Source: Sulfurimonas sp. (GTDB lineage: Bacteria; Campylobacterota; Campylobacteria; Campylobacterales; Sulfurimonadaceae). Taken from it: a stretch of 24,000 nucleotides of DNA. Of the stretch, positions 382 to 23,514 are shown one piece after another (positions within the stretch are counted from its first letter, which is position 1; every line of letters starts with the position of its first letter). Location of the stretch: positions 1,683-25,682 of the forward strand of contig NZ_JBLHOE010000003.1 in assembly GCF_047622445.1 (NCBI RefSeq). Reading direction: 5' to 3'. The position numbers were made by a program, and so were the translations under genes. Under the pieces are notes generated by a model. That model made no database searches. It was not told the origin of the DNA and saw only the letters and a list, made by a program, of their open reading frames with translations.

Positions 382-2079
382 ATGAAAGTTTATAAGTCTA
401 AGAATATTGCAGGTTATTTAGCAGAAGCATTTCTCAAAAATCCTTTAACAATGATTTTTGGTATTTCCATTTTATTACTTGGATATATATCCCTACTTGT
501 AATGCCACGAGAAGAAGACCCTCAAATCGCAGTGAGTGGTGGGTCGGTTATAATCGCTCTTCCTGGAACATCACCTAAAGAAATTACGAATGTTATTATT
601 AAACCTCTTGAACGTCGTATGAATGAGATTAAAGGTGTTGAACATATATACGGTACTGCTATGAATAATGTAGGTATGGTTAATGTACAATATTATATTG
701 GAGAAGAGAGAGAATCTTCAAATTTAAAGCTTTATGATAAAGTGATGCAAAATATGGACTCCCTTCCAATGGGCACAATGCAGCCCCTTATTAAACCATT
801 TGACATTGATATAGATATCCCAATTTTAAGTATTGCTTTTTTTAAGCTAGAAGATGAAAAGATTGATAACCTAAAATTGTATAAGACAATTCGTGATTTA
901 CAACAAGAAATCAATAGTTTAGAAAATGTTTCTAAAACTATTTTAAAAGGTGCAAAGAGTCCACAGTTTAACGTAATGATTGATTTGGATAAACTAGCAG
1001 CTTTTCATATTTCACTTGGTCAAGTAGCACAATCAATACAATCAATATCAAAAAATTCCCCTGAAATTGATGCTCCAACGCAAAGCAATGAGCTTATTGT
1101 TTTTGGTATAAAAAATGCCATTGAAGATATTGCTGATTTAAAAGATTTAATCATTGCGCAGTATAGAGGTTCTGCAATCTACTTAAGTGATATTGCAAAA
1201 ATTACGTATAGTTACGATATCCAAAATTTTCAAAAAGTTCTTTTAAGTTATAGAGATACAAATGGAGAGTTTCGTAAAGCAGGTGATCAATTAACGCTTA
1301 CGGTCGCAAAGCTGAAGGGAACTAATGCTGTTACAATTTCTGAGGATATTATTGCAAAGATTAGAGAATCTAAAGAGGAACTTCAAAGTCAAGGTGTTGG
1401 TTATATTATCACAAGAAATTATGGTATTCGTGCGAATGAAGCGGTAAATGAGTTGGTTCACCACCTTGTCATAACAATATTTATCATTGCTCTTATCCTC
1501 ATACCATTTTTAGGATGGAGAGAATCTCTTGTTGTTACCATCGCGGTACCAATGATTTTAGCATTAACACTTTTTATTGCATATATGACAGACCAGACTA
1601 TCAATAGAATTACACTCTTTGCTTTTTTACTTAGTCTTGGACTTATAGTTGATGATGCGATAATCGTAATTGAAAATATTCACCGTCATATGCACTTGGC
1701 TAAAAGTAAGTTTCAAGACTTTGATGATCTAATTGTTGAAGCAACTGATGAAATAGGTCCTTCTACAAATGTTGCAACAATAGCGATTATTTTGACAATG
1801 GTTCCTATGGCATTTGTTGGAGGGATGATGGGACAATTTATGTTACCCATACCACTTAATGTACCGATTGCTTTAGCAGTATCTCTTTTTGTTGCGTATG
1901 TATTTACCCCATATTTAGCTAAAATATTAATGAGACATAAGCATCAGGAGTGTGAGCTTGAAGGGCCCCAAGAGATTGGAGTTATGAGAAATTTTGGATG
2001 TAAACTAGAAAAGAATATTGGTATTGTTTATTACATGATAGTAAAAAATAAGTGGAGTTGGTTGCAATGGAAAAAATAG
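382..2079 (+). CDS. RND (AcrB/AcrD/AcrF-type) efflux permease, N-terminal half (TM1, periplasmic porter loop, TM2-6)
   Basis: 565-aa ORF with an AGGGG RBS. The N-terminus FLKNPLTMIFGISILLLGYISLLVMPREEDPQI is the typical RND TM1 plus P.E..P motif. The TM4 region LSLGLIVDDAIIVIENIHRH is the conserved proton-relay motif. The ORF stops right after the post-TM6 cytoplasmic linker. Confidence 0.85.
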   Translation: MKVYKSKNIAGYLAEAFLKNPLTMIFGISILLLGYISLLVMPREEDPQIAVSGGSVIIALPGTSPKEITNVIIKPLERRMNEIKGVEHIYGTAMNNVGMVNVQYYIGEERESSNLKLYDKVMQNMDSLPMGTMQPLIKPFDIDIDIPILSIAFFKLEDEKIDNLKLYKTIRDLQQEINSLENVSKTILKGAKSPQFNVMIDLDKLAAFHISLGQVAQSIQSISKNSPEIDAPTQSNELIVFGIKNAIEDIADLKDLIIAQYRGSAIYLSDIAKITYSYDIQNFQKVLLSYRDTNGEFRKAGDQLTLTVAKLKGTNAVTISEDIIAKIRESKEELQSQGVGYIITRNYGIRANEAVNELVHHLVITIFIIALILIPFLGWRESLVVTIAVPMILALTLFIAYMTDQTINRITLFAFLLSLGLIVDDAIIVIENIHRHMHLAKSKFQDFDDLIVEATDEIGPSTNVATIAIILTMVPMAFVGGMMGQFMLPIPLNVPIALAVSLFVAYVFTPYLAKILMRHKHQECELEGPQEIGVMRNFGCKLEKNIGIVYYMIVKNKWSWLQWKK

Positions 2080-3839
2080 TTTATACTATCTTAGACAAGG
2101 CGTGGCTAAGACGTACGGTTGTAATCATAACATTAGTATTATTGGGTGCTTCATTTATGATGATACCTACAAAACTTGTTTTGGCTAAAATGCTACCAGG
2201 AAAAAGTGCAAATACTTTTACAATATATATTGATACACCAACAAACAGTTCTATTGCGCAGACTGAATCGGTTACGGAGTGTATTCAAGATGTACTTATA
2301 AAAGAAAAAGCTGTGATTGATTTGGAAGTGTACCTAGGTCAAGGTGCACCACTTGACTACGCAGGTTTAGTAAAGGGAAGTGATTTTAAACGAATGAAGT
2401 ATCAAGCTGAAATTGTGGTTAATCTTACTCATAAAAATACTCGTGATGAAGCCTCATATAACATGATACACCGTATGCGTCCTTTGATTAATGATACTTG
2501 TAATCCTGTAGTACCGGGAAGTACTATACGTTTTGTTGAGATGCCAGCAGGTCCTCCAACTTTAGCGACAATCGCTATAGAATTGTATGGTAAAGATGAT
2601 AAGCTTATGCGTAAAACCGCGGCTATAATAGCAGAGACTTTCAAGCAAACGGAAGGTCTCGTTGATATTGACACGATGGAAGATACTATTTATACTAAAT
2701 ACGAACTAGCACCGAATAAAGAGAAGATTATGATTAGTGGGCTTAATGTAGAACAGGTAAATAATATTATTTATCTTGCATTTAAGGGTATGTCAGTTGC
2801 AGTGAAAAATACGCGAGATCAACAAGATCAGATTCCAATTTTTGTCCGTCTATCTGAAGAGTCACATCGTTTTAGTGATAAATCAATAGAGGCACTTAAC
2901 CGTAAATTGTCTTCATTAAAGTTGATGAATAAAATGGGTGTAATGGTTCCTCTTAAGGAAGTTGTTTCGGTGCATGAGGTTTTATCAAGTCCTACAATTT
3001 TTCGAAAAAACTTAAAAAACATGATTAGCATAACAGCTGAGTGTGACATGGTTAGTCAAGTATATCCTCTTCTTGAGGCAAGAGATGCTCTAGTAGAGAA
3101 ACTTTCAAAAGATTTTAATGTAACAAAGGTTCCTGGAATTTCGACATTTATGTTTGATCTTAATCTTCAGTCAAAAAATTCAAATGAAAAATTGCTTCTT
3201 CGCTGGGATGGAGAAATGAAAGTATCTTTGGATACTTTTAGAGATTTAGGGGGTGCATTTATTGCAGCTTTAGTATTGATGTTTTTACTTATTGTAGTTT
3301 ACTATAAGTCATTTGCATTGAGTGGTATCGTACTAGCCGGATCTTTTCTTTCCATAATGGGTGTTATCTCTGGACATTGGCTTACTGATAAAATCCAGCT
3401 TTTGATTACTGGAGATAACTTTTATCTTACAGCAACTTCATTAATTGGATTTATTTCTCTTATGGGAATTAGTGCCCGAAGTTCACTTTTATTAATAGAT
3501 TTCTCTCGAGCATTAATCGCAAAAGGAATGGATACACACCGTGCTATTGCCGTAGCTACCGGAACACGTTCTAAACCAATTATGCTTACAGCTATAGCTA
3601 TTATATTAGGAAGTCTTCTTTTATCGACTGACCCAATTTTTGGAGGCTTAGGTATTGCCCTCATTTTTGGTAGTATTGCAGCAACCTTAGTGTCATTATT
3701 TTTTATTCCAGTTCTTATGTACAATACTGATGCACTGAGTTGGCTGAAAAAAAAGCCAGAAGTTGATTCTTCCTCTCCTAGAAAACCTAAAGGTAAAACT
3801 AGTAAAGAGTCTGGTGAGAATGTAATTAATCTAATATAA
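2067..3839 (+). CDS. RND efflux permease, C-terminal half (TM7, second periplasmic loop, TM8-12)
   Basis: The frame is open from 2052 (GTG). An ATG at 2067 is preceded by GGAG (2054-2057) with a 9-nt spacer. It overlaps the upstream half by 13 nt. TM7 (TVVIITLVLLGASFMMI) is followed by LPGKSANTFTIYIDTP (the P..D...f...... P.g.s-type motif) and a C-terminal TM bundle with SLIGFISLMGISARSSLLLIDF. Confidence 0.8.
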   Translation: MEKIVYTILDKAWLRRTVVIITLVLLGASFMMIPTKLVLAKMLPGKSANTFTIYIDTPTNSSIAQTESVTECIQDVLIKEKAVIDLEVYLGQGAPLDYAGLVKGSDFKRMKYQAEIVVNLTHKNTRDEASYNMIHRMRPLINDTCNPVVPGSTIRFVEMPAGPPTLATIAIELYGKDDKLMRKTAAIIAETFKQTEGLVDIDTMEDTIYTKYELAPNKEKIMISGLNVEQVNNIIYLAFKGMSVAVKNTRDQQDQIPIFVRLSEESHRFSDKSIEALNRKLSSLKLMNKMGVMVPLKEVVSVHEVLSSPTIFRKNLKNMISITAECDMVSQVYPLLEARDALVEKLSKDFNVTKVPGISTFMFDLNLQSKNSNEKLLLRWDGEMKVSLDTFRDLGGAFIAALVLMFLLIVVYYKSFALSGIVLAGSFLSIMGVISGHWLTDKIQLLITGDNFYLTATSLIGFISLMGISARSSLLLIDFSRALIAKGMDTHRAIAVATGTRSKPIMLTAIAIILGSLLLSTDPIFGGLGIALIFGSIAATLVSLFFIPVLMYNTDALSWLKKKPEVDSSSPRKPKGKTSKESGENVINLI

Positions 3840-6711: not shown

Positions 6712-7224
6712 ATGAAGTCAAAGATACAAGCTTTTTTAGATACTTTAATCATGTATGATTATATTATTTTTGGAGCTAGCTTTGTTCTTTTTATCCTTTT
6801 TATTGTTCTTGGAATAGTTCTTCGTAAAAAGATAGCTCTTGCTATCATTTTAATACTTCTAGGCTTTATTATACTCATTATTACTCCAACTATTGGGCGT
6901 ATACAAATGCATAACTTTTTATTCTCAAATATGACTACATTATCTTCGCAAAAAAGATTAGAATTCACAGAGGCCATTGTTGTTAAAGGGATACTAGAAA
7001 ATACTTCTAGGTTTAATTTTAAGTCTTGTAAGATTACAGCAAATGTTCATAAAGTGAGTAAAAATACTCTAAAAAACTATATACTACAGTTTAAGACAAT
7101 CAAGAAAATGTCGATTATAAAAGAAGATATTGCTAAAGGCAAAAGCGTGAATTTTAAAATTATTGTAGAACCTTTTACGTATTCTCGAGATTACAATATT
7201 ACTTTAGGAGCGAAATGTAAATGA
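6712..7224 (+). CDS. Hypothetical membrane protein (2-TM hairpin plus soluble domain), possibly DUF2393-like
   Basis: 170 aa with a TAGGA RBS. It has two N-terminal hydrophobic helices and then a beta-rich-looking domain. The DUF2393 assignment rests only on my memory of an epsilonproteobacterial family with this architecture. Confidence 0.55.
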   Translation: MKSKIQAFLDTLIMYDYIIFGASFVLFILFIVLGIVLRKKIALAIILILLGFIILIITPTIGRIQMHNFLFSNMTTLSSQKRLEFTEAIVVKGILENTSRFNFKSCKITANVHKVSKNTLKNYILQFKTIKKMSIIKEDIAKGKSVNFKIIVEPFTYSRDYNITLGAKCK

Positions 7225-7766
7225 CTTTACTTAATTACTGGCACTATATATTCTTAGGGATATCTTTTTTAATTTTTTTAATTGGTGTTATATCTGCTTT
7301 TAGACAAGAAAAGAAGTTGATTATACCAATGTTAATTACAGCTTTCTTAATCTCTACTCTCTTAGCTTTTTTTTCTGTTATGGTGGTAGATAAATACACA
7401 AAAAAAGTAAAAGTTGTTAAGATTAAAAATAAAAGATTACTTTCCACTGAGCGGATAATTTATAGTGGTATTATTAAAAATGTAGGTAATTACCCTATAG
7501 GTAAGGTTGTTTTAGAAATTAAGCTTGTAAATAAAGGCCATGCTACAGGAAATGTCAAAGGCGGTAACTTTTATAAGGCGAGTGGAATTGTCGATTTCTT
7601 TAGTGGTGGGATGGGTATGGCAAAATCAAAACCACAATCAATTACAAAAGAGTTTATAGTAGCCAAGAATCTTAAAGCTGGTGCTGCAAAACAATTTAGA
7701 GTTCACTTTAAATATCCTGGATATTTTAGAAGTGTTGCTGATTTTGTGGAAGTAAGAGGGAAGTAA
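7221..7766 (+). CDS. Hypothetical membrane protein, distant tandem paralog of the preceding gene (DUF2393-like)
   Basis: 181 aa. It has an ATGA start/stop overlap with the upstream gene (7221-7224). It shares the same 2-TM plus soluble-domain layout. NKRLLSTERIIYSGIIKNVG aligns with QKRLEFTEAIVVKGILENTS of the neighbor. Confidence 0.55.
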   Translation: MTLLNYWHYIFLGISFLIFLIGVISAFRQEKKLIIPMLITAFLISTLLAFFSVMVVDKYTKKVKVVKIKNKRLLSTERIIYSGIIKNVGNYPIGKVVLEIKLVNKGHATGNVKGGNFYKASGIVDFFSGGMGMAKSKPQSITKEFIVAKNLKAGAAKQFRVHFKYPGYFRSVADFVEVRGK

Positions 7767-12053: not shown

Positions 12054-13328
12054 TTAATAGAGCTCACTTCCCCACTTTAAAACATCTATCCCATACTTTT
12101 CTCTTAACTCCTGTGAAGAACTTGTAAGTTTTTTCATTTTTTGATCATCATAAAAGTTTAAAAGGGAAAGTTCTTTTTTTGAATCCCTTGTAAAACTAGA
12201 ACACGTAATACTAAGCCTGATTACATGCAGTCTTTTTTGTGTATCTGCTTCGTTAAATAATTGCATACAAAGTGAGTCGAATTTTTTTTCAGTAAATACT
12301 TCAGCTAAAGATATGTTTTTATGCGATTTTTGATTCATTTCATAAGAAATACCCAGATGAAATACTGTAGGAATAACATTTAGTTTTAAGATGGCATAAC
12401 TAAGGTGGCGAGCAAGTACATGCACTCTTCTTTTAAGTTCAACTCTATCATGTAGAGGATCTATAGTTCTTGAAATACCAATGGACTTTCTTGTATGTGT
12501 AGTTTTTATTGGCGCATCACTCAGTCCACTCACTCGATTATATAAATCTTTTGCATATGGTCCCCAAGACTCAACTGTTCCTCGTCTTTGTCTTAACTCT
12601 CCAAGTGTATGGATATGAACTGATGCCAGTTTTGATTTCATGCTTTTACCAATACCCGCAAAATTACCAACTAGTATTGGGTTGATAAAAGCGTCAAATT
12701 CATGCTCTCTGATTATTTTACATCCAAATGGTTTCGCATATGTAGTTGCAAGCTTCGCAATATATCTTGTTTTTGAAGCGCCTATGGATACTGGTAATTT
12801 TAAGACTTTTTTGATTTCATGTCGAAGATTATCTATGAACTGAGGTACATCTTCATCTTCTATCCATCCAGATACATCTCCATAAAACTCATCAATGCTG
12901 GCTTGCTCAATTAGGGGAATCCTTGCGCATAAGAATTGGTGAAGTTCATGGGAGAGTTTTTGATAAAGGGACATATTTGGTGCTTTTATGATTAAGTGAG
13001 GACATAACTCTAATGCTTCTTTAATGCTCATCGCAGTTTTGATACCATACTTTCTTGCTTCATAACTAGATGTAGTAAGAATACCACGAATACGACCATC
13101 CGCATCTTTAAACGCATTTATGTCATCATCGCTCTTTTCATAGGCTTTATAAAATGTAGGAACAAATGAACCGGAGTTTTCAAAGTTTACAGTTTGCTTT
13201 TTTGCTTCACGCGAGAATATTTTTGTATCACTTCTCCCTCCAATTGCCATGGCTTTATTCTCAAGGGAGGGATCAACAATTCTAGCAGCACTTGCGAAGA
13301 AGCAATCGATATCAATGTGTATTTTCAA
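12054..13328 (-). CDS. dinB: Y-family DNA polymerase (Pol IV/DinB-like) with an internal insertion
   Basis: 424 aa. The start is TTG with AAGGGG 7 nt upstream. IHIDIDCFFASAA contains the catalytic Asp pair, SSYEARKYGIKTAMS is present, and SIDEFYGDV contains the catalytic D-E. GIGKSMKSKL is HhH-like, and a little-finger region follows. Confidence 0.85.
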   Translation of the reverse strand: MKIHIDIDCFFASAARIVDPSLENKAMAIGGRSDTKIFSREAKKQTVNFENSGSFVPTFYKAYEKSDDDINAFKDADGRIRGILTTSSYEARKYGIKTAMSIKEALELCPHLIIKAPNMSLYQKLSHELHQFLCARIPLIEQASIDEFYGDVSGWIEDEDVPQFIDNLRHEIKKVLKLPVSIGASKTRYIAKLATTYAKPFGCKIIREHEFDAFINPILVGNFAGIGKSMKSKLASVHIHTLGELRQRRGTVESWGPYAKDLYNRVSGLSDAPIKTTHTRKSIGISRTIDPLHDRVELKRRVHVLARHLSYAILKLNVIPTVFHLGISYEMNQKSHKNISLAEVFTEKKFDSLCMQLFNEADTQKRLHVIRLSITCSSFTRDSKKELSLLNFYDDQKMKKLTSSSQELREKYGIDVLKWGSELY

Positions 13329-13356
13329 AAAATAAGCCCCTTCTAACGGTTATTTT

Positions 13357-13384
13357 AAAGGTGTATTTATTTTTTATACACTTT
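13357..13384. promoter_or_regulatory. Imperfect inverted repeat AAAG(G)TGTAT-N9-ATACACTTT upstream of the polymerase gene
   Basis: Seen directly, 29-56 nt upstream of the TTG start of the minus-strand polymerase gene. The arms are 9 bp with one bulged G. It is a candidate operator, and no cognate regulator is identifiable. Confidence 0.25.
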
Positions 13385-13609
13385 GTAATGTTGTAAACTA
13401 CTACTATTATTAATGAATAATAAGGGATTTTTTGAGAGAATATTAATTATATGGCAGATTGACATTTTTATCTATGTTGATTTGGTAGCCAATTTTTCGA
13501 CTTCTTTGACTTTTATTGTTTTTTAATCGTTTGAACTTCTACATTTTTTTCACTCAATTTAGCTAAAATACTATAAATAATTAAAAAATATTCTTTAAGG
13601 TATCGCCTA

Positions 13610-13969
13610 GTGTCTATGTTCCAAAAATCAGTTTTAAAAAGTATCAAACGAGATGAAAGTATAGTTGCTCATAGATGGGCAGAATATCAAAACTTATTAA
13701 ATCAGTTAGAGCTTGAAAAAATACCTAAAAAATTACAAAAATTTGATGAGTTTGTAAAAGAATATAAAAAAGTTAAGAAGTTAAAATTTGTGGATAAACT
13801 TGAAGAAAAAAACTTTAAAAATGAGTGGAAAGCACTTTTTGAAAATGACACTAGAATAGTGTTAGATTTAAAATCTCAAATTAAAACGACAGATAAAGAG
13901 ATTAATAGTATGGTTTATGAGCTTTACGGACTTAGTGATGAAGAGATAAAAGTTATTAAAGGTGCTTAA
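13610..13969 (+). CDS. 119-codon ORF that looks like an in-frame deletion remnant of a Type IIG (Eco57I/TaqI-C-terminal type) restriction-modification enzyme, likely non-functional
   Basis: The N-terminal MFQKSVLKSIKRDESIVAHRWAEYQ resembles the conserved N-terminus of large fused RM enzymes. The C-terminal NEWKALFENDTRIVLDLKSQIKTTDKEINSMVYELYGLSDEEIKVIKG matches their signature tail (...EID..VYELYGLTEEEI..VE). The whole ~1000-aa nuclease/methylase/TRD body is missing. Confidence 0.5.
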   Translation: MSMFQKSVLKSIKRDESIVAHRWAEYQNLLNQLELEKIPKKLQKFDEFVKEYKKVKKLKFVDKLEEKNFKNEWKALFENDTRIVLDLKSQIKTTDKEINSMVYELYGLSDEEIKVIKGA

Positions 13970-13970
13970 T

Positions 13971-14465
13971 ATGAATTTAGATAGTATAATTGATAAGGTT
14001 TCACTATCAAAAGAAAAACAAGTATCTTTATTTATATTCTGTGTAATTTTAATTATAGTTTCAAAAAATGATTTTCTTGTAGAGTTCTTTCAGATAGAAA
14101 GTTTGCTACTTAATTTAATGCCAACGATAGCGGTTTTATTATTCTTCTTATTTGGAACAATCATTGGAAAACCTATATATGATTTTTTTAAGAATAAATA
14201 TATTGGATATGTTAATAATAAGAATATGAATATATTTTTACAACAATTGACAAATGATGAAAAAGATATATTAAGATACTATCTTACAGAAAATAAAAGA
14301 ACTCAATATTTAAATATTTCTGATGGTGTAATAAATGGTTTATCTACAAAGGGGTTAGTTTATCGTCCGTCAAATGTTGGATTACCTTATGGCACTGACA
14401 TTGCCTACAATATTCAAGATATAGCATATAATATTTTACAAAAACATCCTGAATACTTGGACTAA
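13971..14465 (+). CDS. Small membrane protein, tentatively superinfection-exclusion-B (SieB, PF14163)-like
   Basis: The ATG at 13971 lies 1 nt after the upstream stop and has an AAAGGTG RBS. The track starts at GTG 13962. There are two hydrophobic segments (VSLFIFCVILIIV and LMPTIAVLLFFLFGTIIG), then LTNDEKDILRYYLTENKRTQYLNISDGVINGLSTKGLVYR, which resembles the SieB-family C-terminal pattern as I recall it. Confidence 0.45.
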   Translation: MNLDSIIDKVSLSKEKQVSLFIFCVILIIVSKNDFLVEFFQIESLLLNLMPTIAVLLFFLFGTIIGKPIYDFFKNKYIGYVNNKNMNIFLQQLTNDEKDILRYYLTENKRTQYLNISDGVINGLSTKGLVYRPSNVGLPYGTDIAYNIQDIAYNILQKHPEYLD

Positions 14466-14483
14466 AAATTTAAAAGGTAAATT

Positions 14484-14708
14484 ATGATTAAAATAGAAGT
14501 TCGTTATGTTAATGGAGACATGAGTGAGTTTGAAGAAAATGATAGTTTTATATCTAATCTCAGAAACTTAGAAAGTAAAGGTCTTGTAGGAAAAGCATTA
14601 ATTGATAGTTTGATAACTGATGACTGGGGTGTTCCTCCATCAGGCATTATTATAAAAGGAAAACGAAGCAATGGTGCTGTTATTAAAGAAGTTATTAACT
14701 ACAATTAG
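14484..14708 (+). CDS. Hypothetical 74-aa soluble protein
   Basis: An AAAGG RBS lies 6 nt upstream, and the gene starts 18 nt after the preceding gene. I recognize no motif. It is acidic in the N-terminal half and basic in the C-terminal half. Confidence 0.45.
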   Translation: MIKIEVRYVNGDMSEFEENDSFISNLRNLESKGLVGKALIDSLITDDWGVPPSGIIIKGKRSNGAVIKEVINYN

Positions 14709-14927
14709 CATTTATTTAAGTTGCTTTTTTTCTCCCAGGCTATGCTTGGGTGTGAAAATTTAACTACTTGACTTACACTATTTTGGTCTTAGATTATTAG
14801 AGCAAATATTATCTTTCCCTCTAACACCATCTCTCATATAAGACTTTTCTAAATTCCCTACTTTTTGCTATACAGCATAACTATAACAAAATAAATAATT
14901 TTAAAAAATTAAGAGATTTCTTTGAAA

Positions 14928-14943
14928 TTCCTAAAATTAGGAA
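14928..14943. promoter_or_regulatory. Palindrome TTCCTAA-AA-TTAGGAA upstream of the J-domain pseudogene
   Basis: Perfect 7-bp arms with a 2-nt spacer, ~70 nt upstream of ATG 15012. It is a candidate operator or dimeric-factor binding site. Confidence 0.2.
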
Positions 14944-15011
14944 GTTTAGAAGAAAAAACAATCCCCTCAACAATCTTCAAAAAGGTAAATTTTTTATTTA
15001 AAGGACAAGAG

Positions 15012-15276
15012 ATGATACAGGCACAAATTGAGAATGAGTTCATAGGTATAGACGGTATAAATGAGGTTAAGAAAATGTACAAAGAGTTAGCAAGAAAAGC
15101 TTCATCCTGATGTAGGAGGCTCAACAGAGCTTTTTAAAATACTAAATACAGTATATAACCATATTTTAGAAAATGGTATCAACTTTTCAAAAGATGGCCA
15201 CTATGATATTACTATAACTATTATAATGTATAAATTCATAGATACTTCATTGTATGACAGGAAGTCATTTTTTTAG
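15012..15276 (+). pseudogene. Small stand-alone J-domain protein gene disrupted by a 1-nt frameshift just before the HPD motif
   Basis: An AAGGA RBS (15001-15005) precedes ATG 15012, which reads MIQAQIENEFIGIDGINEVKKMYKELARKA, then SS-stop at 15108. Skipping one T near 15102 continues as HPDVGGSTELFKILNTVYNHILENGINF... to a TAG at 15274-15276. Joined, this gives a canonical J-domain helix II, HPD motif and helix III. Confidence 0.65.
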
Positions 15277-15289
15277 ACACCTTTAAAAA

Positions 15290-16135
15290 TCAATAACTAT
15301 CAAACTGCTCTTGTATTTTTGCTAAATCGTGATGATGGGCATACAAAGGTTCCATACTACCAAAGCGTACACGTTGCTCAAAAGTGCTATTAATATTTTT
15401 GTAAATTATACCAAGAGGCATTGGTGTTCCTTCAAGTACTTTTTGGATAGCTGCACTAAGGTTACTACTATCGTGAGAGTCCTCTAATATATAGCTATTA
15501 TCTTTAAACCATTTATATGTATTGGTTTTATTGAAGACTACACATGGCTGTAAAATATCTATAAGAGCATATCCCGGGTGTAAAAAAGCGGCTTTTAATA
15601 TCTCTTTTGCATGTTTAATATCTCCTATATTAACACGGGAGACAAATCCAGCTTTTAAAGCTAACGCAACACTTAGAGGATTAAAAGGTTCACTACCGAC
15701 ACCATCAACCTGAACCTTACTTGTAAAACCTTTTTGACTTGTAGGTGAAGCTTGACCTTTAGTAAGTCCATAAACCATATTATTGTGAACAATGTGAACG
15801 ATATTGACGTTACGACGAATCGCATGAAGAAAATGGTTACCACCTTCACCATACATATCACCATCGCCACCTTCAGCTATGACTGTTAACTGTGGATTAG
15901 CGGCTTTTAGGGCTGTTGCAACTGGTAAAGCTCTCCCATGTAAGACACCAAACATGTTTACATCAATATAGTAGGGCGTTTTCGCCGCCTGTCCAATTCC
16001 TGAAACGATAACCGTACTTCCTTTGTCCGCCTCTAATTCAGCAAGAATCTCTGTGACTAGCTTCAATATCCCAAAATTACCACATCCTGGACACCATGCT
16101 ACATCTACATTTTCTCTATTAAATGAATTGCTCAT
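15290..16135 (-). CDS. 2-oxoacid:ferredoxin (acceptor) oxidoreductase, beta subunit (TPP-binding)
   Basis: 281 aa. The Fe-S Cys motif is WCPGCGNFGI. The TPP motif is EGGDGDMYGEGGNHFLHAIRRNVNI..IVHNNMVYGLTKGQ. An ATGA overlap with the upstream alpha gene (16132-16135) indicates translational coupling. Confidence 0.88.
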   Translation of the reverse strand: MSNSFNRENVDVAWCPGCGNFGILKLVTEILAELEADKGSTVIVSGIGQAAKTPYYIDVNMFGVLHGRALPVATALKAANPQLTVIAEGGDGDMYGEGGNHFLHAIRRNVNIVHIVHNNMVYGLTKGQASPTSQKGFTSKVQVDGVGSEPFNPLSVALALKAGFVSRVNIGDIKHAKEILKAAFLHPGYALIDILQPCVVFNKTNTYKWFKDNSYILEDSHDSSNLSAAIQKVLEGTPMPLGIIYKNINSTFEQRVRFGSMEPLYAHHHDLAKIQEQFDSY

Positions 16136-18687
16136 GATAACTCCCTTAAAACTTTTACAATCATATCTTTAAGCTGATCAGCAAAAAAAGCGAAGCCATT
16201 AAACTGCAAAATTTGTTTGTCAATTTTAATACCATACATTTTTAGTCTCTGAGTAAAAGCTCCATCTGCATTGTTCTCGACAACTATTATATGTTTATAA
16301 TTTCTAAGAAAGTTCAGATGTTCAGGGTTTAGTGGATGTATCCATGTAAAATGAACCTGAGTTAAGTGAGAATCATCAATCATCTTCAAGGCTTCAGAAA
16401 TAGCACCCTGCGTGGATCCCCAGCCAATAACTGCAATATCTCCATCTCCATAACATTTTGGAGGGATAGCTTCTTCTATTAATGCTGTTTCTTTTTTTGA
16501 ACGTTTTAAGGCCATTTGTACTCGTTTGTTATAATCTTCAGTGATTTGACTTCTTTCATCATGTTCATGACCCTCTGAACAGACAAGTCCTATACCAAAA
16601 CCTGGAATTCCTCTCGGACTTACACCATTATCTAAATCTATATACCGTTTATATGTGTCTTTTGTTTTTGTAATGTAACGGCGTTGCTCATAGGATGCAA
16701 AATCAACATCTTCAATCATTGACATAGAATCAGCTAAATACTGATCAGTTAAAAATATAACAGGCAACTGGTATCTGTCTGCTAACTCAAAGGCAAGGTA
16801 GGCATAATCAATACATTCTTTAAGATTACCTGGTGCTAACAAGATTCTTTGAAATGCTCCATGACCTGAATGAAGTGCTAAATTTAAATCACCTTGTTCT
16901 GTTCGCGTAGGCATCCCGGTTGCTGGACCTGGTCTTTGAGCAAGATATATTACAGCTGGTGTCTCACTCATACCTGAGAGACTTAAAGCTTCACTCATCA
17001 GAGCAAATCCACCCCCAGATGTAGTTGTTAAAGCACGTGCTCCGCCATACCATGCTCCAAGCACCATATGTAAAGATGCTATTTCGTCTTCACTTTGTTC
17101 TACTACTATGTCAAATTCTTTTGACATGGATGCCATAAAGTTTAAGACACCGGTAGAAGGTGACATTGGATAAGAAGCGACAAAGTTACATCCTCCTGTT
17201 AAAAAACCAAATCCAGATGCTGTTGTTCCATCCATCAGGTGAAGTTTAGAAACTTCTTCTTTAGACACTCTTGGAATCTTGGGTAAGGTTGAACTATCTA
17301 GTTTCATTCCTGTTTGAAGGCCGATTTTAACTGCCTCAACATTTTTTTTATCTTCAGTAAAATACTTAGTTACACTTTCCAATAAAGGTTCTGCTTCAAT
17401 GTTAAGTAATCCAAAAATCACACCACTAATATAGGTATTAGCATAACGTGGGTTACCAAGCTTTTTAACTGTTTCTTTTATAGCAATAGAGGTAGAATTT
17501 TTATCCCTTGATATCTCATCTGCTAAAATAAGTGTCAAGCTTGTACATCTATTTTCTGCATGTTTTAAAGCTAGATTATCTATGGCAATAAATATATCTA
17601 CATCCCAGCACGCCGCTTTAATAGGGCAATCAGAGATGCGAATTAGTATAGTATTACTTCCACCGCGAACCCTTGACATATACTCCTTGCTAGAGAATAC
17701 ATAATATCCAGCATTTTTCAAAGAATTATTTAGGATTTTTTCTAGAGTTTCAATTCCTGTACCTGCCGCTCCTCCGATGAGTATAGAAATACTTGTGGAT
17801 TTATTGTCATTATCTTTTTCTTTCTCTATTGATAGTTTTACGGGCTTTAAAGTGGATTCAGATAGAAAAGGAAGGTCAAATTTTTTGGCAATTGGAAGTT
17901 TGCCTACAATAGGTTTTATAGAATTAACTGTTTTGCTAACAACCTCTTCTTCTTCTTCTTCTTCTTCTTCTTCTTTGTAATTAGATTTATCTCCCCAGGT
18001 TATTTTACCTCCGTAGTACCCAAGTATGATGACATTTATACCTGTAACTAGGACTATGAAGTGGTAGGTAATACCTAGCGCAGATAGATCATAAACAACA
18101 TTTGGATTTGTTACGTAAATCATAATTCCGATTATTCCAAGTAAGAGTGTTATCAATGAAACAATGATTTTTATAATAAAGGGGCGAGCTTTTGAAAGGT
18201 TATAATTAATCCACCAGCTTAAAAGGCCTGTTATCATAGCCAAAAGTCCTAAGACAGTGGCGACAAAAAAAGTATAATATACTGGGAGAGCATAAGCCTC
18301 TTTTGGATTAAAAAAGAATAATATGTCTAATACAGCTGCAAAAATATGTAAGACTATTGGAAAGTGAGATACCATTGGATGAGGATGGTATTTTTTATAC
18401 CAGACTCTAAGTCTCTCTTTTAAAAGTTTTTTTGATTCTTTGTTAGTATGAGTTAAAGTCTTTTCTTCTTCAAAGACTGCGACAACTGGAAATTTTTCAA
18501 AAACATCATCCCCATGCGGTGCATTTTCCATCATAGGGGTTAAGTCCAATCCAGCATTATGCATACCTTCGTGCTCTCCATTTTTCCATAGACTACTCGA
18601 AGTTACATCGTATACCTTCCCTTTATAAGCAATATACGCTTTCTTGCCATTGCGACCGTTGTGTACGCTAAGTTCATCTTTTGTCAT
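16132..18687 (-). CDS. Fusion protein: cytochrome-b5-like heme/steroid-binding domain, 4-TM DUF2231-like module, poly-Glu linker, and 2-oxoacid:ferredoxin oxidoreductase gamma and alpha domains
   Basis: I prefer the ATG at comp. 18687, with AGGA 6 nt upstream. The track starts at GTG 18726. Track residues 14-85 read ELSVHNGRNGKKAYIAYKGKVYDVTSSSLWKNGEH..MHNAGLDLT...APHG (COG4892-like). Residues 112-240 hold HPHPMVSHFPIVLHI plus four hydrophobic helices. Residues 252-261 are E10. Residues 311-480 hold the gamma motif ILIGGAAGTGIE...SRVRGGSN. Residues 495-864 hold the alpha motifs YPMSPST, EDEIASL and TTTSGGGFALMSE. Confidence 0.85.
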   Translation of the reverse strand: MTKDELSVHNGRNGKKAYIAYKGKVYDVTSSSLWKNGEHEGMHNAGLDLTPMMENAPHGDDVFEKFPVVAVFEEEKTLTHTNKESKKLLKERLRVWYKKYHPHPMVSHFPIVLHIFAAVLDILFFFNPKEAYALPVYYTFFVATVLGLLAMITGLLSWWINYNLSKARPFIIKIIVSLITLLLGIIGIMIYVTNPNVVYDLSALGITYHFIVLVTGINVIILGYYGGKITWGDKSNYKEEEEEEEEEEVVSKTVNSIKPIVGKLPIAKKFDLPFLSESTLKPVKLSIEKEKDNDNKSTSISILIGGAAGTGIETLEKILNNSLKNAGYYVFSSKEYMSRVRGGSNTILIRISDCPIKAACWDVDIFIAIDNLALKHAENRCTSLTLILADEISRDKNSTSIAIKETVKKLGNPRYANTYISGVIFGLLNIEAEPLLESVTKYFTEDKKNVEAVKIGLQTGMKLDSSTLPKIPRVSKEEVSKLHLMDGTTASGFGFLTGGCNFVASYPMSPSTGVLNFMASMSKEFDIVVEQSEDEIASLHMVLGAWYGGARALTTTSGGGFALMSEALSLSGMSETPAVIYLAQRPGPATGMPTRTEQGDLNLALHSGHGAFQRILLAPGNLKECIDYAYLAFELADRYQLPVIFLTDQYLADSMSMIEDVDFASYEQRRYITKTKDTYKRYIDLDNGVSPRGIPGFGIGLVCSEGHEHDERSQITEDYNKRVQMALKRSKKETALIEEAIPPKCYGDGDIAVIGWGSTQGAISEALKMIDDSHLTQVHFTWIHPLNPEHLNFLRNYKHIIVVENNADGAFTQRLKMYGIKIDKQILQFNGFAFFADQLKDMIVKVLRELS
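17944..17973 (-). repeat. Trinucleotide repeat (GAA)9GAG encoding Glu10 in the linker of the fusion protein
   Basis: The plus strand reads CTC(TTC)9 at 17944-17973. It is a perfect microsatellite inside the coding sequence. Confidence 0.95.
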
Positions 18688-18885
18688 AATTAATCCTATA
18701 AAGTTAGGTTTGCTTGTACTATGCACAGAATAAATATGGTCCTAAGCTGGTGTTAATTTAAATATTTTTTCCTGAAATATAATATATTCTTATTATATTT
18801 TAGCTTATGAAAATAAAAAAGTATCAAAATAAAACATATTAGATTAAAGATGTAAGAATAATTTTTAAATATCTCATAAAAATCT

Positions 18886-22633: not shown

Positions 22634-23023
22634 ATGGATCATATTGCTACAGCAAATCCGTATTTTGGTGTATTTGTACTGTTCGTAATCACATTTGGTG
22701 CATTTTATGCAACAACTGTATTGGCGCGTTTAGCATCTCGTGCATTAGCTGCAAAAGATAGCGAAAAAATTAAATTATCGGTTTACGAATGTGGACCAGA
22801 AGTAACAAGACAACCAAATAGAATTTCGCCACAGTTTTATCTGTTCGCACTTTTATTTTTACTCTTTGATGTTGAAATCGTGTTTATGTTCCCATGGGCA
22901 GTAGATTTTAAACTTTTAGGATGGTTTGGTTTTGCTGAGATGTTAATGTTTATATTATTATTAACTATCGGTTTTGTATACGCATGGAAAAAAGGAGCAC
23001 TTGAATGGCACAACATAAAGTAA
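22634..23023 (+). CDS. nuoA: NADH-quinone oxidoreductase subunit A
   Basis: 129 aa with three TM segments. [17 protein letters not shown] and the C-terminal KKGALEW are NuoA/ND3 signatures. AAAAGGTAGG RBS. Confidence 0.9.
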
Positions 23024-23514
23024 ATTATTCACAAGATGGTGGACTTCCAGTTGCACTAACAAGTATAGATAAAATCGTAAACTGGGGTCGTTCAAATTCA
23101 ATTTGGGCTCTTACTTATGGTCTTGCTTGTTGTGGTATTGAGATGATGGCTTCTGGAGCTTCAAGATTTGACTTTGACCGGTATGGTACGATTTTTCGTG
23201 CTTCACCACGTCAAGCAGATGTTATGATAGTTGCTGGAACACTTACAAAAAAACACGCTGAGTTTATTAAGCGTTTATATGATCAAATGACTGAGCCTAG
23301 ATGGGTTATTTCAATGGGTTCATGTGCAAATACTGGTGGTATGTTTAATACATATGCAACTGTTCAAGGTTGTGACAGAATTATCCCTGTTGATTTATAT
23401 CTTCCAGGTTGTGCACCTCGTCCTGAAACGCTTCAGTATGGTGTAATGCTATTACAGAAAAAAATCCGTGCTAATCATGCTTCTAAAGCGCAAAAAGCAA
23501 AAAGGTTAATGTAA
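23005..23514 (+). CDS. nuoB: NADH-quinone oxidoreductase subunit B
   Basis: 169 aa. [29 protein letters not shown] and PGCAPRPE carry the N2 cluster cysteines. It overlaps nuoA by 19 nt. Confidence 0.92.

Follow-up and report, generated by a model that had tools for sequence, protein, structure and literature searches.

A predicted heme-binding cytb5M-DUF2231 membrane module fused to the alpha subunit of a two-subunit 2-oxoacid:ferredoxin oxidoreductase in Sulfurimonas and related Campylobacterota

A 24,000-nucleotide stretch of DNA from Sulfurimonas sp. (Campylobacterota; NCBI RefSeq assembly GCF_047622445.1, contig NZ_JBLHOE010000003.1, positions 1,683 to 25,682 of the forward strand), hereafter referred to as the window, carries on its minus strand a single gene in which a cytochrome b5-like domain of the predicted cytb5M class, a DUF2231 module with four predicted transmembrane (TM) helices and a linker are joined to the gamma and alpha catalytic parts of a 2-oxoacid:ferredoxin oxidoreductase (OFOR). 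The open reading frame (ORF) at 16132..18726 codes for 864 amino acids (aa) if counted from an upstream GTG codon (18726). The ATG at 18687 is almost certainly the real start, since AGGA lies 8 nt upstream of it, the homologs all begin with MT(x)xEL and the resulting 851-aa product (16132..18687) is known identically, with 100% identity, from a metagenome-assembled genome (MAG) of Sulfurimonas, where it is encoded on an 81-kb contig. Residue numbers given below refer to the 851-aa product unless stated otherwise; those of an earlier first-pass annotation, made from the letters of the window alone, are higher by 13.

The Pfam domains identified in the fusion protein (864-aa numbering) are Cyt-b5 at residues 15-79 (31.0 bits, gathering cutoff 23.7), DUF2231 at 116-247 (40.3 bits, with a range of 40.3-44.6 over the scans, cutoff 26.4), POR at 321-470 (73.6 bits, cutoff 27.4, E=2.8e-20) and POR_N at 509-739 (182.2 bits, cutoff 27, E=1.6e-53), and the NCBIfam model TIGR03710 (2-oxoacid:acceptor oxidoreductase alpha) is matched with 556 bits (cutoff 483). 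The first-pass annotation had described one ORF joining a b5-like domain, four hydrophobic helices, a Glu10 linker and a gamma plus alpha unit, an organisation confirmed by the ORF list, Pfam and NCBIfam, and the motifs it quoted, its five His residues, the Glu10 tract and the ATGA coupling to a 281-aa beta subunit gene are all present in the sequence.

The N-terminal domain (aa 1-72; 18472..18687, minus strand, as are all parts of the operon) matches two cytb5M proteins of solved structure, PDB 6VZ6 from Methanococcoides burtonii (phmmer E=2.8e-25) and PDB 6NZX from Hadesarchaea (E=3.2e-21). In an AlphaFold model of residues 1-260, with a mean predicted local distance difference test score (pLDDT) of 89.6, the b5 part has the same fold as these two proteins and superposes on them in Foldseek with a template-modelling score of 0.88, a root-mean-square deviation of 1.4-1.6 Å and 55-57% identity. 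Heme b is held in the cytb5M structures by the axial ligands H42 and H61, a further contact from H46 and a hydrogen bond from S34 (bioRxiv 10.1101/2021.11.30.470528). These residues correspond to H39, H58, H43 and S31 of the fusion protein in an ungapped alignment with a constant offset, so that the S-x7-H-x3-H-x14-H pattern of heme contacts is shared; all four are invariant in 24 fusion homologs and are kept in 99%, 99%, 86% and 89%, respectively, of 95 diverse module homologs. Because the heme-contact residues are conserved and the domain matches heme-containing crystal structures, it is strongly predicted to bind heme b with H39 and H58 as the two axial ligands, and the earlier b5-like assignment, upheld by the profile scores, can be refined to the cytb5M class. 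The solved cytb5M proteins are free-standing and 78 aa long, whereas the present domain shares its chain with a membrane module and an enzyme. Metagenomic proteins with three to six tandem cytb5M domains were also encountered (P0242, 655 aa; P0244; P0247-P0251 and others).

A flexible linker and a Lys/Arg-rich amphipathic helix follow (aa 73-103; 18379..18471), with pLDDT below 50 at residues 75-87, nine Lys or Arg residues within 82-103 and a YHPHP motif (H101, H103) at the end, and lead into the DUF2231 module (aa 104-227; 18007..18378). In the AlphaFold2 model the Lys/Arg-rich helix spans residues 82-100 and is followed by helices at 104-126, 130-162, 168-193 and 203-226, at pLDDT of about 90-98, and hydropathy analysis likewise gives four hydrophobic segments. 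The Lys and Arg counts are nine before TM1 (residues 82-103), two (plus K173) in the loop between TM2 and TM3, and one and none in the remaining loops. The four segments and this charge distribution indicate an N-in/C-in topology, in which the cytb5M and OFOR parts would both be cytoplasmic, in support of the same-side placement that had been presumed in the first-pass annotation. A permissive Pfam scan of the TM part gave DUF2231 only, with no second family.

Residues conserved throughout the DUF2231 part of the module family are H101, H103, P104, H108, P110, G154, W158, Y162, K173 and G226, the three His residues being kept in 84-92% of the members. The helix boundaries place every one of them at a cytoplasmic helix end, on the side of the cytb5M domain, which suggests a cofactor or quinone site facing that domain. 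Two further residues, H114 in TM1 and H209 in TM4, occur in only 5-7% of the broad family and are near-universal in the OFOR-linked Campylobacterota clade. Both are present in 117/119 fusion proteins and in 99 standalone proteins and both are absent from 85 standalone proteins, with only one of the two found in 6 cases, a distribution compatible with a clade-specific extra heme site. Membership among the di-heme transmembrane cytochromes b (b561, CybB, NarI or ferric-reductase type) was considered and rejected, as Pfam finds DUF2231 only, the Foldseek hits have E>=0.1 and there is one clade-specific His pair here as against the two inter-helix pairs of those proteins.

The membrane module is connected to the enzyme by a disordered tether of about 70 aa (aa 228-298; 17794..18006; pLDDT 29-52), which varies among homologs and includes the Glu10 tract coded by (GAA)9GAG at 17944..17973. 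Next come the OFOR gamma-like domain (17317..17766) and the alpha catalytic domains (16135..17202), which comprise POR_N and a C-terminal domain and carry a YPMSP motif and the invariant R585. The beta subunit gene (15290..16135), overlapping the fusion gene by ATGA, encodes the thiamine pyrophosphate (TPP) site and a WCPGCG loop and is recognised by TPP_enzyme_C (1.3e-27), PFO_beta_C (1.1e-20) and TIGR02177 (331 bits against a cutoff of 262). A full-length AlphaFold2 model of the fusion protein (mean pLDDT 74.7) contains three confident modules separated by disordered linkers at 75-87 and 231-294, an arrangement that can be likened to that of enzymes with a mobile cytochrome domain.

The nearest solved structures are those of Sulfolobus tokodaii StOFOR1/2 (PDB 5B46-5B48; alpha E=1.3e-69, beta E=2e-60) and of the 2-oxoglutarate oxidoreductase (OGOR) of Magnetococcus marinus (6N2N). 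Like these and the Hydrogenobacter thermophilus KorAB, all two-subunit (ab)2 OFORs, the present enzyme has a fused gamma and alpha, a TPP-binding beta, a single Fe-S cluster, no delta subunit, the CPGC loop, the substrate Arg and equivalents of Lys49b and Leu123b. Those enzymes are soluble and use free ferredoxin, whereas about 300 extra N-terminal residues with the predicted heme domain and four TM helices are found here, through which the protein is predicted to be membrane-integral. No delta gene or ferredoxin-like ORF was found in the operon or downstream of it, and no such domain appeared in the Pfam scan. The first-pass annotation was correct on this absence and had taken it for an unusual trait; however, the two-subunit OFORs (StOFOR, the M. 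marinus OGOR and H. thermophilus KorAB) never have a delta subunit (PMC5020499), and it is therefore normal for a StOFOR-class enzyme with two subunits, one cluster and no ferredoxin domain.

In StOFOR, Arg344a and YPITP bind the substrate carboxylate, Lys49b and Asp468a are needed for 2-oxoglutarate, Leu123b lies in the substrate pocket and the CPGC loop docks ferredoxin (PMC5020499). Arg344a corresponds to R585 of the fusion protein, Lys49b, Leu123b and the CPGC loop are conserved, and in place of YPITP there is YPMSP, in which Ser stands for Thr. The equivalent of StOFOR1 Asp468a is Asp in most of the clade and His in the window protein (alpha residue ~707, within GHEHDE) and its closest relatives (P0004, P0010 and P0017 among others). 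The substrate is probably pyruvate and/or 2-oxoglutarate, and the His/Asp difference may mark a split in substrate preference within the family. Thus, contrary to the earlier statement that substrate specificity cannot be read from the sequence, hints are readable, the Lys49b and Asp468a equivalents being conserved in most of the clade.

Only three Cys residues (C15, C18 and C198) are present in the beta subunit, as the GIGC Cys of the solved enzymes (SGIGCS), the third Cys of the cluster, is Gln49 here (SGIGQA), and the four-Cys ligation (CxxC, GIGC, QPC) of the [4Fe-4S] cluster in two-subunit OFORs is not matched. GIGQ was found in all 24 related cytb5M-linked loci and also in 119/120 nearest relatives, which lack cytb5M (Thermococcus, Pyrococcus, Methanococcus, Desulfuromonas, Flexistipes and Planctomycetota). 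The suggestion that the change from Cys to Gln is tied to the cytb5M partnership was rejected on this account; the three-Cys GIGQ beta is a trait of a broad OFOR subfamily without a solved structure and not of the fusion.

A homolog search covering 5.8 billion proteins identified more than 110 clusters (at 90% identity) that share the four-domain architecture, with 47-100% identity to the fusion protein. Their sources are Sulfurimonas, Sulfuricurvum, Sulfurovum, Thiovulaceae, Thiomicrolovo and Arcobacteraceae, complete genomes among them, and they are publicly annotated as '2-oxoacid:acceptor oxidoreductase subunit alpha' or '2-oxoglutarate ferredoxin oxidoreductase subunit alpha'. Neither the length nor the sequence of the post-TM4 linker is constant among these homologs, and most have no GAA run, yet the reading frame is unbroken. 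This bears directly on a possibility raised in the first-pass annotation, namely that the 300 N-terminal codons belong to a gene of their own and were joined to the OFOR through a wrong length of the GAA tract or through misassembly. Simple repeats such as GAA are prone to error and split versions do exist in other species, but the ORF is continuous in more than 110 independent clusters, down to 47% identity and mostly in the absence of the GAA tract, the same frame runs without a stop through 12 species-level genomes and the identical 851-aa protein is present on the 81-kb contig. A frameshift or an assembly join is therefore excluded, and an artefact of this kind has practically no probability left.

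The cytb5M-DUF2231 module was also found on its own. Searches with the N-terminal 260 residues retrieved about 110 standalone proteins of roughly 226 aa (COG4892 + PF09990), with the same two domains and the His triad; a scan of 1.84 billion representatives yielded 1780 relatives at E<=1e-3, mostly of 225-245 aa and some with tandem cytb5M domains, among which OFOR fusions made up only two representative clusters; and a genome scan detected the module in at least 585 species-level genomes. The standalone form occurs in Desulfobacterota, Spirochaetota, Deferribacterota and other phyla. Gene contexts were analysed in the 80 best loci of the genome scan together with loci fetched earlier. All 25 Campylobacterota loci with a downstream flank have OFOR alpha and beta fused to the module or directly after it (12 fused plus the window, 12 split), and in two Campylobacterota lineages the standalone module gene overlaps or directly precedes the genes for OFOR alpha (564-588 aa) and beta. 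In Desulfurella acetivorans the module lies 1.7 kb upstream of OFOR alpha/beta within one cluster. An adjacent OFOR was found in none of the 55 loci of Desulfobacterota, Spirochaetota, Deferribacterota and Anaerolineae, two of which have partial OFOR-like matches more than 6 kb away; the standalone proteins outside Campylobacterota and Desulfurella, which are uncharacterised, also differ in lacking H114/H209 and in often being encoded behind a UbiA-like prenyltransferase.

Partial variants exist as well. The cytb5M domain is joined straight to the OFOR, without TM helices, in P0112/P0113 and in locus L087 (on a 2.13-Mb chromosome), and genes for DUF2231 alone lie directly before or overlap the OFOR in loci L041 and L052, from which cytb5M is absent and where H114/H209 are both kept. 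Frame breaks seen in loci L017 and L031 may stem from sequencing errors in the MAGs. In a tree built from the alpha catalytic region by a rough neighbour-joining procedure, and carrying no bootstrap support, the enzymes of Campylobacterota group in a single clade, to which Desulfurella is sister; split forms are both basal (Sulfuricurvum) and nested among the fused ones, and the TM-less form lies deep inside a fused clade. As the split, fused and TM-less forms interleave, fusion, fission and module loss have occurred repeatedly, which is the pattern expected of physically interacting partners, and the fused, split and partial variants together provide a Rosetta-stone link between the module and the OFOR.

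The same variants bear on an alternative in which the module would only anchor the OFOR at the membrane or would switch the enzyme by sensing redox state, O2 or NO through its heme, with the electrons leaving to soluble ferredoxin or flavodoxin. Such a role would agree with the intact ferredoxin-docking loop, with the fact that relatives of the same beta subfamily work without the module and with the existence of variants lacking cytb5M or the TM helices, and the oxygen-stress neighbourhood described below would suit a sensor too. However, bis-His hexacoordinate b5-type hemes are typically electron carriers and not gas sensors, the TM-less fusion retains its cytb5M domain though no anchor remains, and the occurrence of the module in the 585 or more genomes, mostly without an OFOR and beside genes of the quinone-biosynthesis type, points to an autonomous redox function. 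An anchoring or sensing role is thus regarded as unlikely.

Several genes recur in the neighbourhood of the module in Campylobacterota. A gene for Fe/Mn superoxide dismutase (SOD) is present in 11 loci, often on the same strand and 24-70 nt upstream. A small homolog of high-potential iron-sulfur proteins (HiPIPs) with a twin-arginine translocation (TAT) signal, recognised by its match to PDB 1ISU (E=1.4e-8) and scoring below the Pfam HIPIP cutoff, lies beside the operon in six loci (L016 6729-6983; L018 6680-6925; L027 1270-1500; L001 4467-4697; L022; L052), often between sodB and the module. Phosphoenolpyruvate (PEP) synthase neighbours five loci and SufBCD three, and in Desulfurella rubrerythrins and AhpC are encoded between the module and the OFOR. 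The gene most often met beside the module in the other phyla codes for a divergent UbiA-like polyprenyltransferase and lies directly upstream, on the same strand, in 19/55 loci (within L028-L086; for example L066 1651-2598 and L058 5168-5977); next come a UbiE/MenG/MpqE-type methyltransferase (8/55), a molybdopterin/Fe-S protein (6/55) and a thiol peroxidase, Tpx (4/55). The proximity of the UbiA-like and UbiE/MenG-type genes suggests that the module is linked to quinones, and the UbiA-like protein, the methyltransferase, Tpx and the cytb5M-DUF2231 protein may constitute an undescribed quinone-related gene set. A Thermococcus contig (L088, 719-9906) carries a GIGQ-type two-subunit OFOR, its alpha called as 106 + 451 aa, inside an oxygen-detoxification cluster of superoxide reductase, rubredoxin, rubrerythrin, flavodiiron protein, NROR-like protein and peroxiredoxin, beside a gene for a DOMON-domain protein, a context that echoes the oxygen-stress theme.

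These neighbourhoods could also mean that the OFOR mainly supplies 2-oxoacid electrons for defence against reactive oxygen species and not for respiration, in which case the module would keep membrane quinols or antioxidants reduced, or would detoxify O2 or superoxide at the membrane. Apart from the SOD genes, the rubrerythrins and AhpC of Desulfurella, the Thermococcus homolog beside its DOMON heme protein and the Tpx genes near the module in some Desulfobacterota would all be in keeping with such a supply. Against it, the genes may lie together only because they are co-regulated, such neighbours are missing from the window locus and many others, and no direct acceptor can be named; the proposal is accordingly considered rather improbable.

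Taken together, the domains and their conservation, the invariant heme residues, the Rosetta-stone linkage and variants, the co-occurrence of the His pair, the disordered linkers, the conserved CPGC loop, the quinone-type and oxygen-stress neighbours and the cytoplasmic position of the conserved residues favour the view that the cytb5M-DUF2231 module is a built-in electron outlet of the enzyme, with electrons passing from the cytb5M heme through DUF2231 to menaquinone or another membrane or periplasmic acceptor, a view that we give an even chance of being right. We infer this much along with the first-pass annotation, whose idea of a built-in acceptor wired to the membrane has gained backing from the fusion and fission pattern and the gene neighbourhoods. 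The anchoring or sensing role and the supply to oxygen defence overlap with it in part.

In such a scheme, a Campylobacterota-specific variant of the (alpha-beta)2 OFOR would have acquired its own redox partner, either fused to alpha or encoded directly upstream. A 2-oxoacid (pyruvate and/or 2-oxoglutarate) would undergo TPP-dependent oxidative decarboxylation with coenzyme A (CoA) and thereby reduce the single Fe-S cluster of beta, and the mobile cytb5M heme would dock where ferredoxin normally binds and accept the electrons singly. The heme would hand them to a redox site in DUF2231, formed by the His triad at the cytoplasmic face and, in this clade, a probable extra heme at H114/H209, from which they would reach menaquinone or the other acceptor. 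The use of a free, low-potential, autoxidisable ferredoxin would thus be avoided, which would be useful when O2 is present and fits the neighbourhoods with SOD, rubrerythrin and AhpC. The enzyme would run in the oxidative direction only, because the potentials of heme b and quinones lie far above that of the 2-oxoacid couple: 2-oxoacid couples are near -500 mV, menaquinone is at -74 mV and b-type hemes are likewise far higher than the 2-oxoacid couples.

The same potentials bear on the reverse flow of electrons, which had been offered in the first-pass annotation as an alternative and in which the module would feed membrane electrons to the OFOR for reductive carboxylation in the reductive form of the tricarboxylic acid cycle (rTCA). 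The host lineage is indeed an rTCA autotroph and PEP synthase is adjacent in the five related loci noted above. On established thermodynamics, however, the potentials of b-type hemes and menaquinol exceed by hundreds of mV what 2-oxoacid synthesis requires, no energy-coupling element is present, and the rTCA cycle in these organisms is attributed to pyruvate and 2-oxoglutarate oxidoreductases (POR/OOR) of four or five subunits. A supply of electrons to reductive carboxylation by way of a b5-type heme or the quinone pool is thus thermodynamically implausible and, as an account of this enzyme, very improbable.

An electron outlet of the favoured kind would be analogous to that of flavocytochrome b2, sulfite oxidase and assimilatory nitrate reductase, in which a b5-type heme on a flexible tether serves as a built-in one-electron outlet. 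These enzymes are eukaryotic and have a classical b5 with flavin or Mo cofactors, and we know of no TPP/Fe-S enzyme with a tethered b5 outlet. The net reaction proposed, oxidation of a 2-oxoacid by a TPP enzyme with transfer to the quinone pool, is that of the pyruvate:quinone oxidoreductases (PoxB of E. coli and PQO of Corynebacterium). Those are, unlike the fusion enzyme, peripheral FAD flavoproteins without CoA, Fe-S, heme or TM helices; membership of the window protein in that group was rejected, since Pfam finds no TPP_enzyme_N/M or FAD domains and the architecture is of the OFOR type.

A number of points weigh against the outlet proposal. Placing electrons of -500 mV onto a heme or quinone wastes energy that is conservable through flavodoxin and complex I. 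Neither part of the module is indispensable, as the variants without cytb5M or without TM helices demonstrate, and the window was found to hold no SOD or HiPIP gene and no other redox neighbour of the operon. Judged by helix position, H114 sits in the cytoplasmic half of the bilayer and H209 in the periplasmic one, and a single heme may thus not be ligated by both; their co-occurrence follows the phylogeny and so reflects few independent events. No solved or characterised relative of DUF2231 was found, the Foldseek hits for its TM part (CcmC, cytochrome b561 and CcmF) being at E>=0.1, and to our knowledge no cofactor has been described for the family. An extension of the outlet proposal, in which electrons would cross the membrane from the Fe-S cluster through the cytb5M heme and DUF2231 heme(s) at H114/H209 to a periplasmic HiPIP and perhaps a cbb3 oxidase, takes as its candidate carrier the TAT-exported homolog beside the operon in the six related loci and appears doubtful. 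Such a conduit, if true, would be a new respiratory entry point bypassing ferredoxin, complex I and the quinone pool and would provide the first function for the widespread DUF2231 family.

The immediate neighbours of the operon in the window are a divergent lipoprotein-like ORF, endonuclease IV and an AAA ATPase. A scan for promoters and terminators was uninformative, with 25 promoter-like sites against 20.7 expected and no terminators found. About 4 kb from the OFOR gene, homologs of nuoA and nuoB (Oxidored_q4 and Oxidored_q6; 22634-23514, plus strand) open a complex I operon; the complex I of Campylobacterota is thought to take electrons from flavodoxin or ferredoxin reduced by OFORs. The GC content of the window is about 30-36%, its lowest values (26-29%) being at 13000-15300, a stretch that contains an ORF with a SieB (superinfection exclusion) domain (13962-14465) and about 800 nt devoid of convincing ORFs downstream of the OFOR beta gene, and that may be the remnant of a mobile or defence element. 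Other features include an AcrB/RND transporter at 382-3839 (plus strand), present as two overlapping ORFs of 565 aa (profile 5-498) and 595 aa (profile 523-1017), which is a frameshift or pseudogene unless the pump is truly split, and two tandem DUF2393 paralogs (170 and 181 aa) after hisIE at 6712-7766 (plus strand).

A literature search, which covered few papers in subscription journals, found no description of a heme-linked or membrane-bound OFOR and no function assigned to DUF2231; the cytb5M preprints do not mention the cytb5M-DUF2231-OFOR architecture, and work on the oxygen tolerance of the rTCA cycle in Campylobacterota has considered only the four- versus five-subunit POR/OOR. The architecture is thus conserved yet undescribed, the proteins being already public under generic names. 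Since the generic annotation hides the extra 300 residues, surveys of rTCA genes may list the enzyme among the OORs of carbon fixation.

OFORs are regarded as soluble, O2-sensitive and ferredoxin-dependent enzymes, a weak point that confines the rTCA cycle to low-oxygen niches, and work on cytb5M has dealt with it only as the ancestor of the eukaryotic MAPR/PGRMC1 proteins. An OFOR integral to the membrane and equipped with a heme acceptor of its own would, if true, be the first of its kind and is likely to be of interest to specialists on OFORs and on Campylobacterota; it would also offer a first functional handle on cytb5M and DUF2231, two uncharacterised families. The design may have to do with coping with oxygen. 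Sulfurimonas, Sulfurovum and Sulfuricurvum, which are among the carriers of the fusion, dominate redoxclines and hydrothermal vents, and the built-in outlet would, if true, provide a concrete and testable mechanism by which these bacteria could oxidise 2-oxoacids under oxygen.

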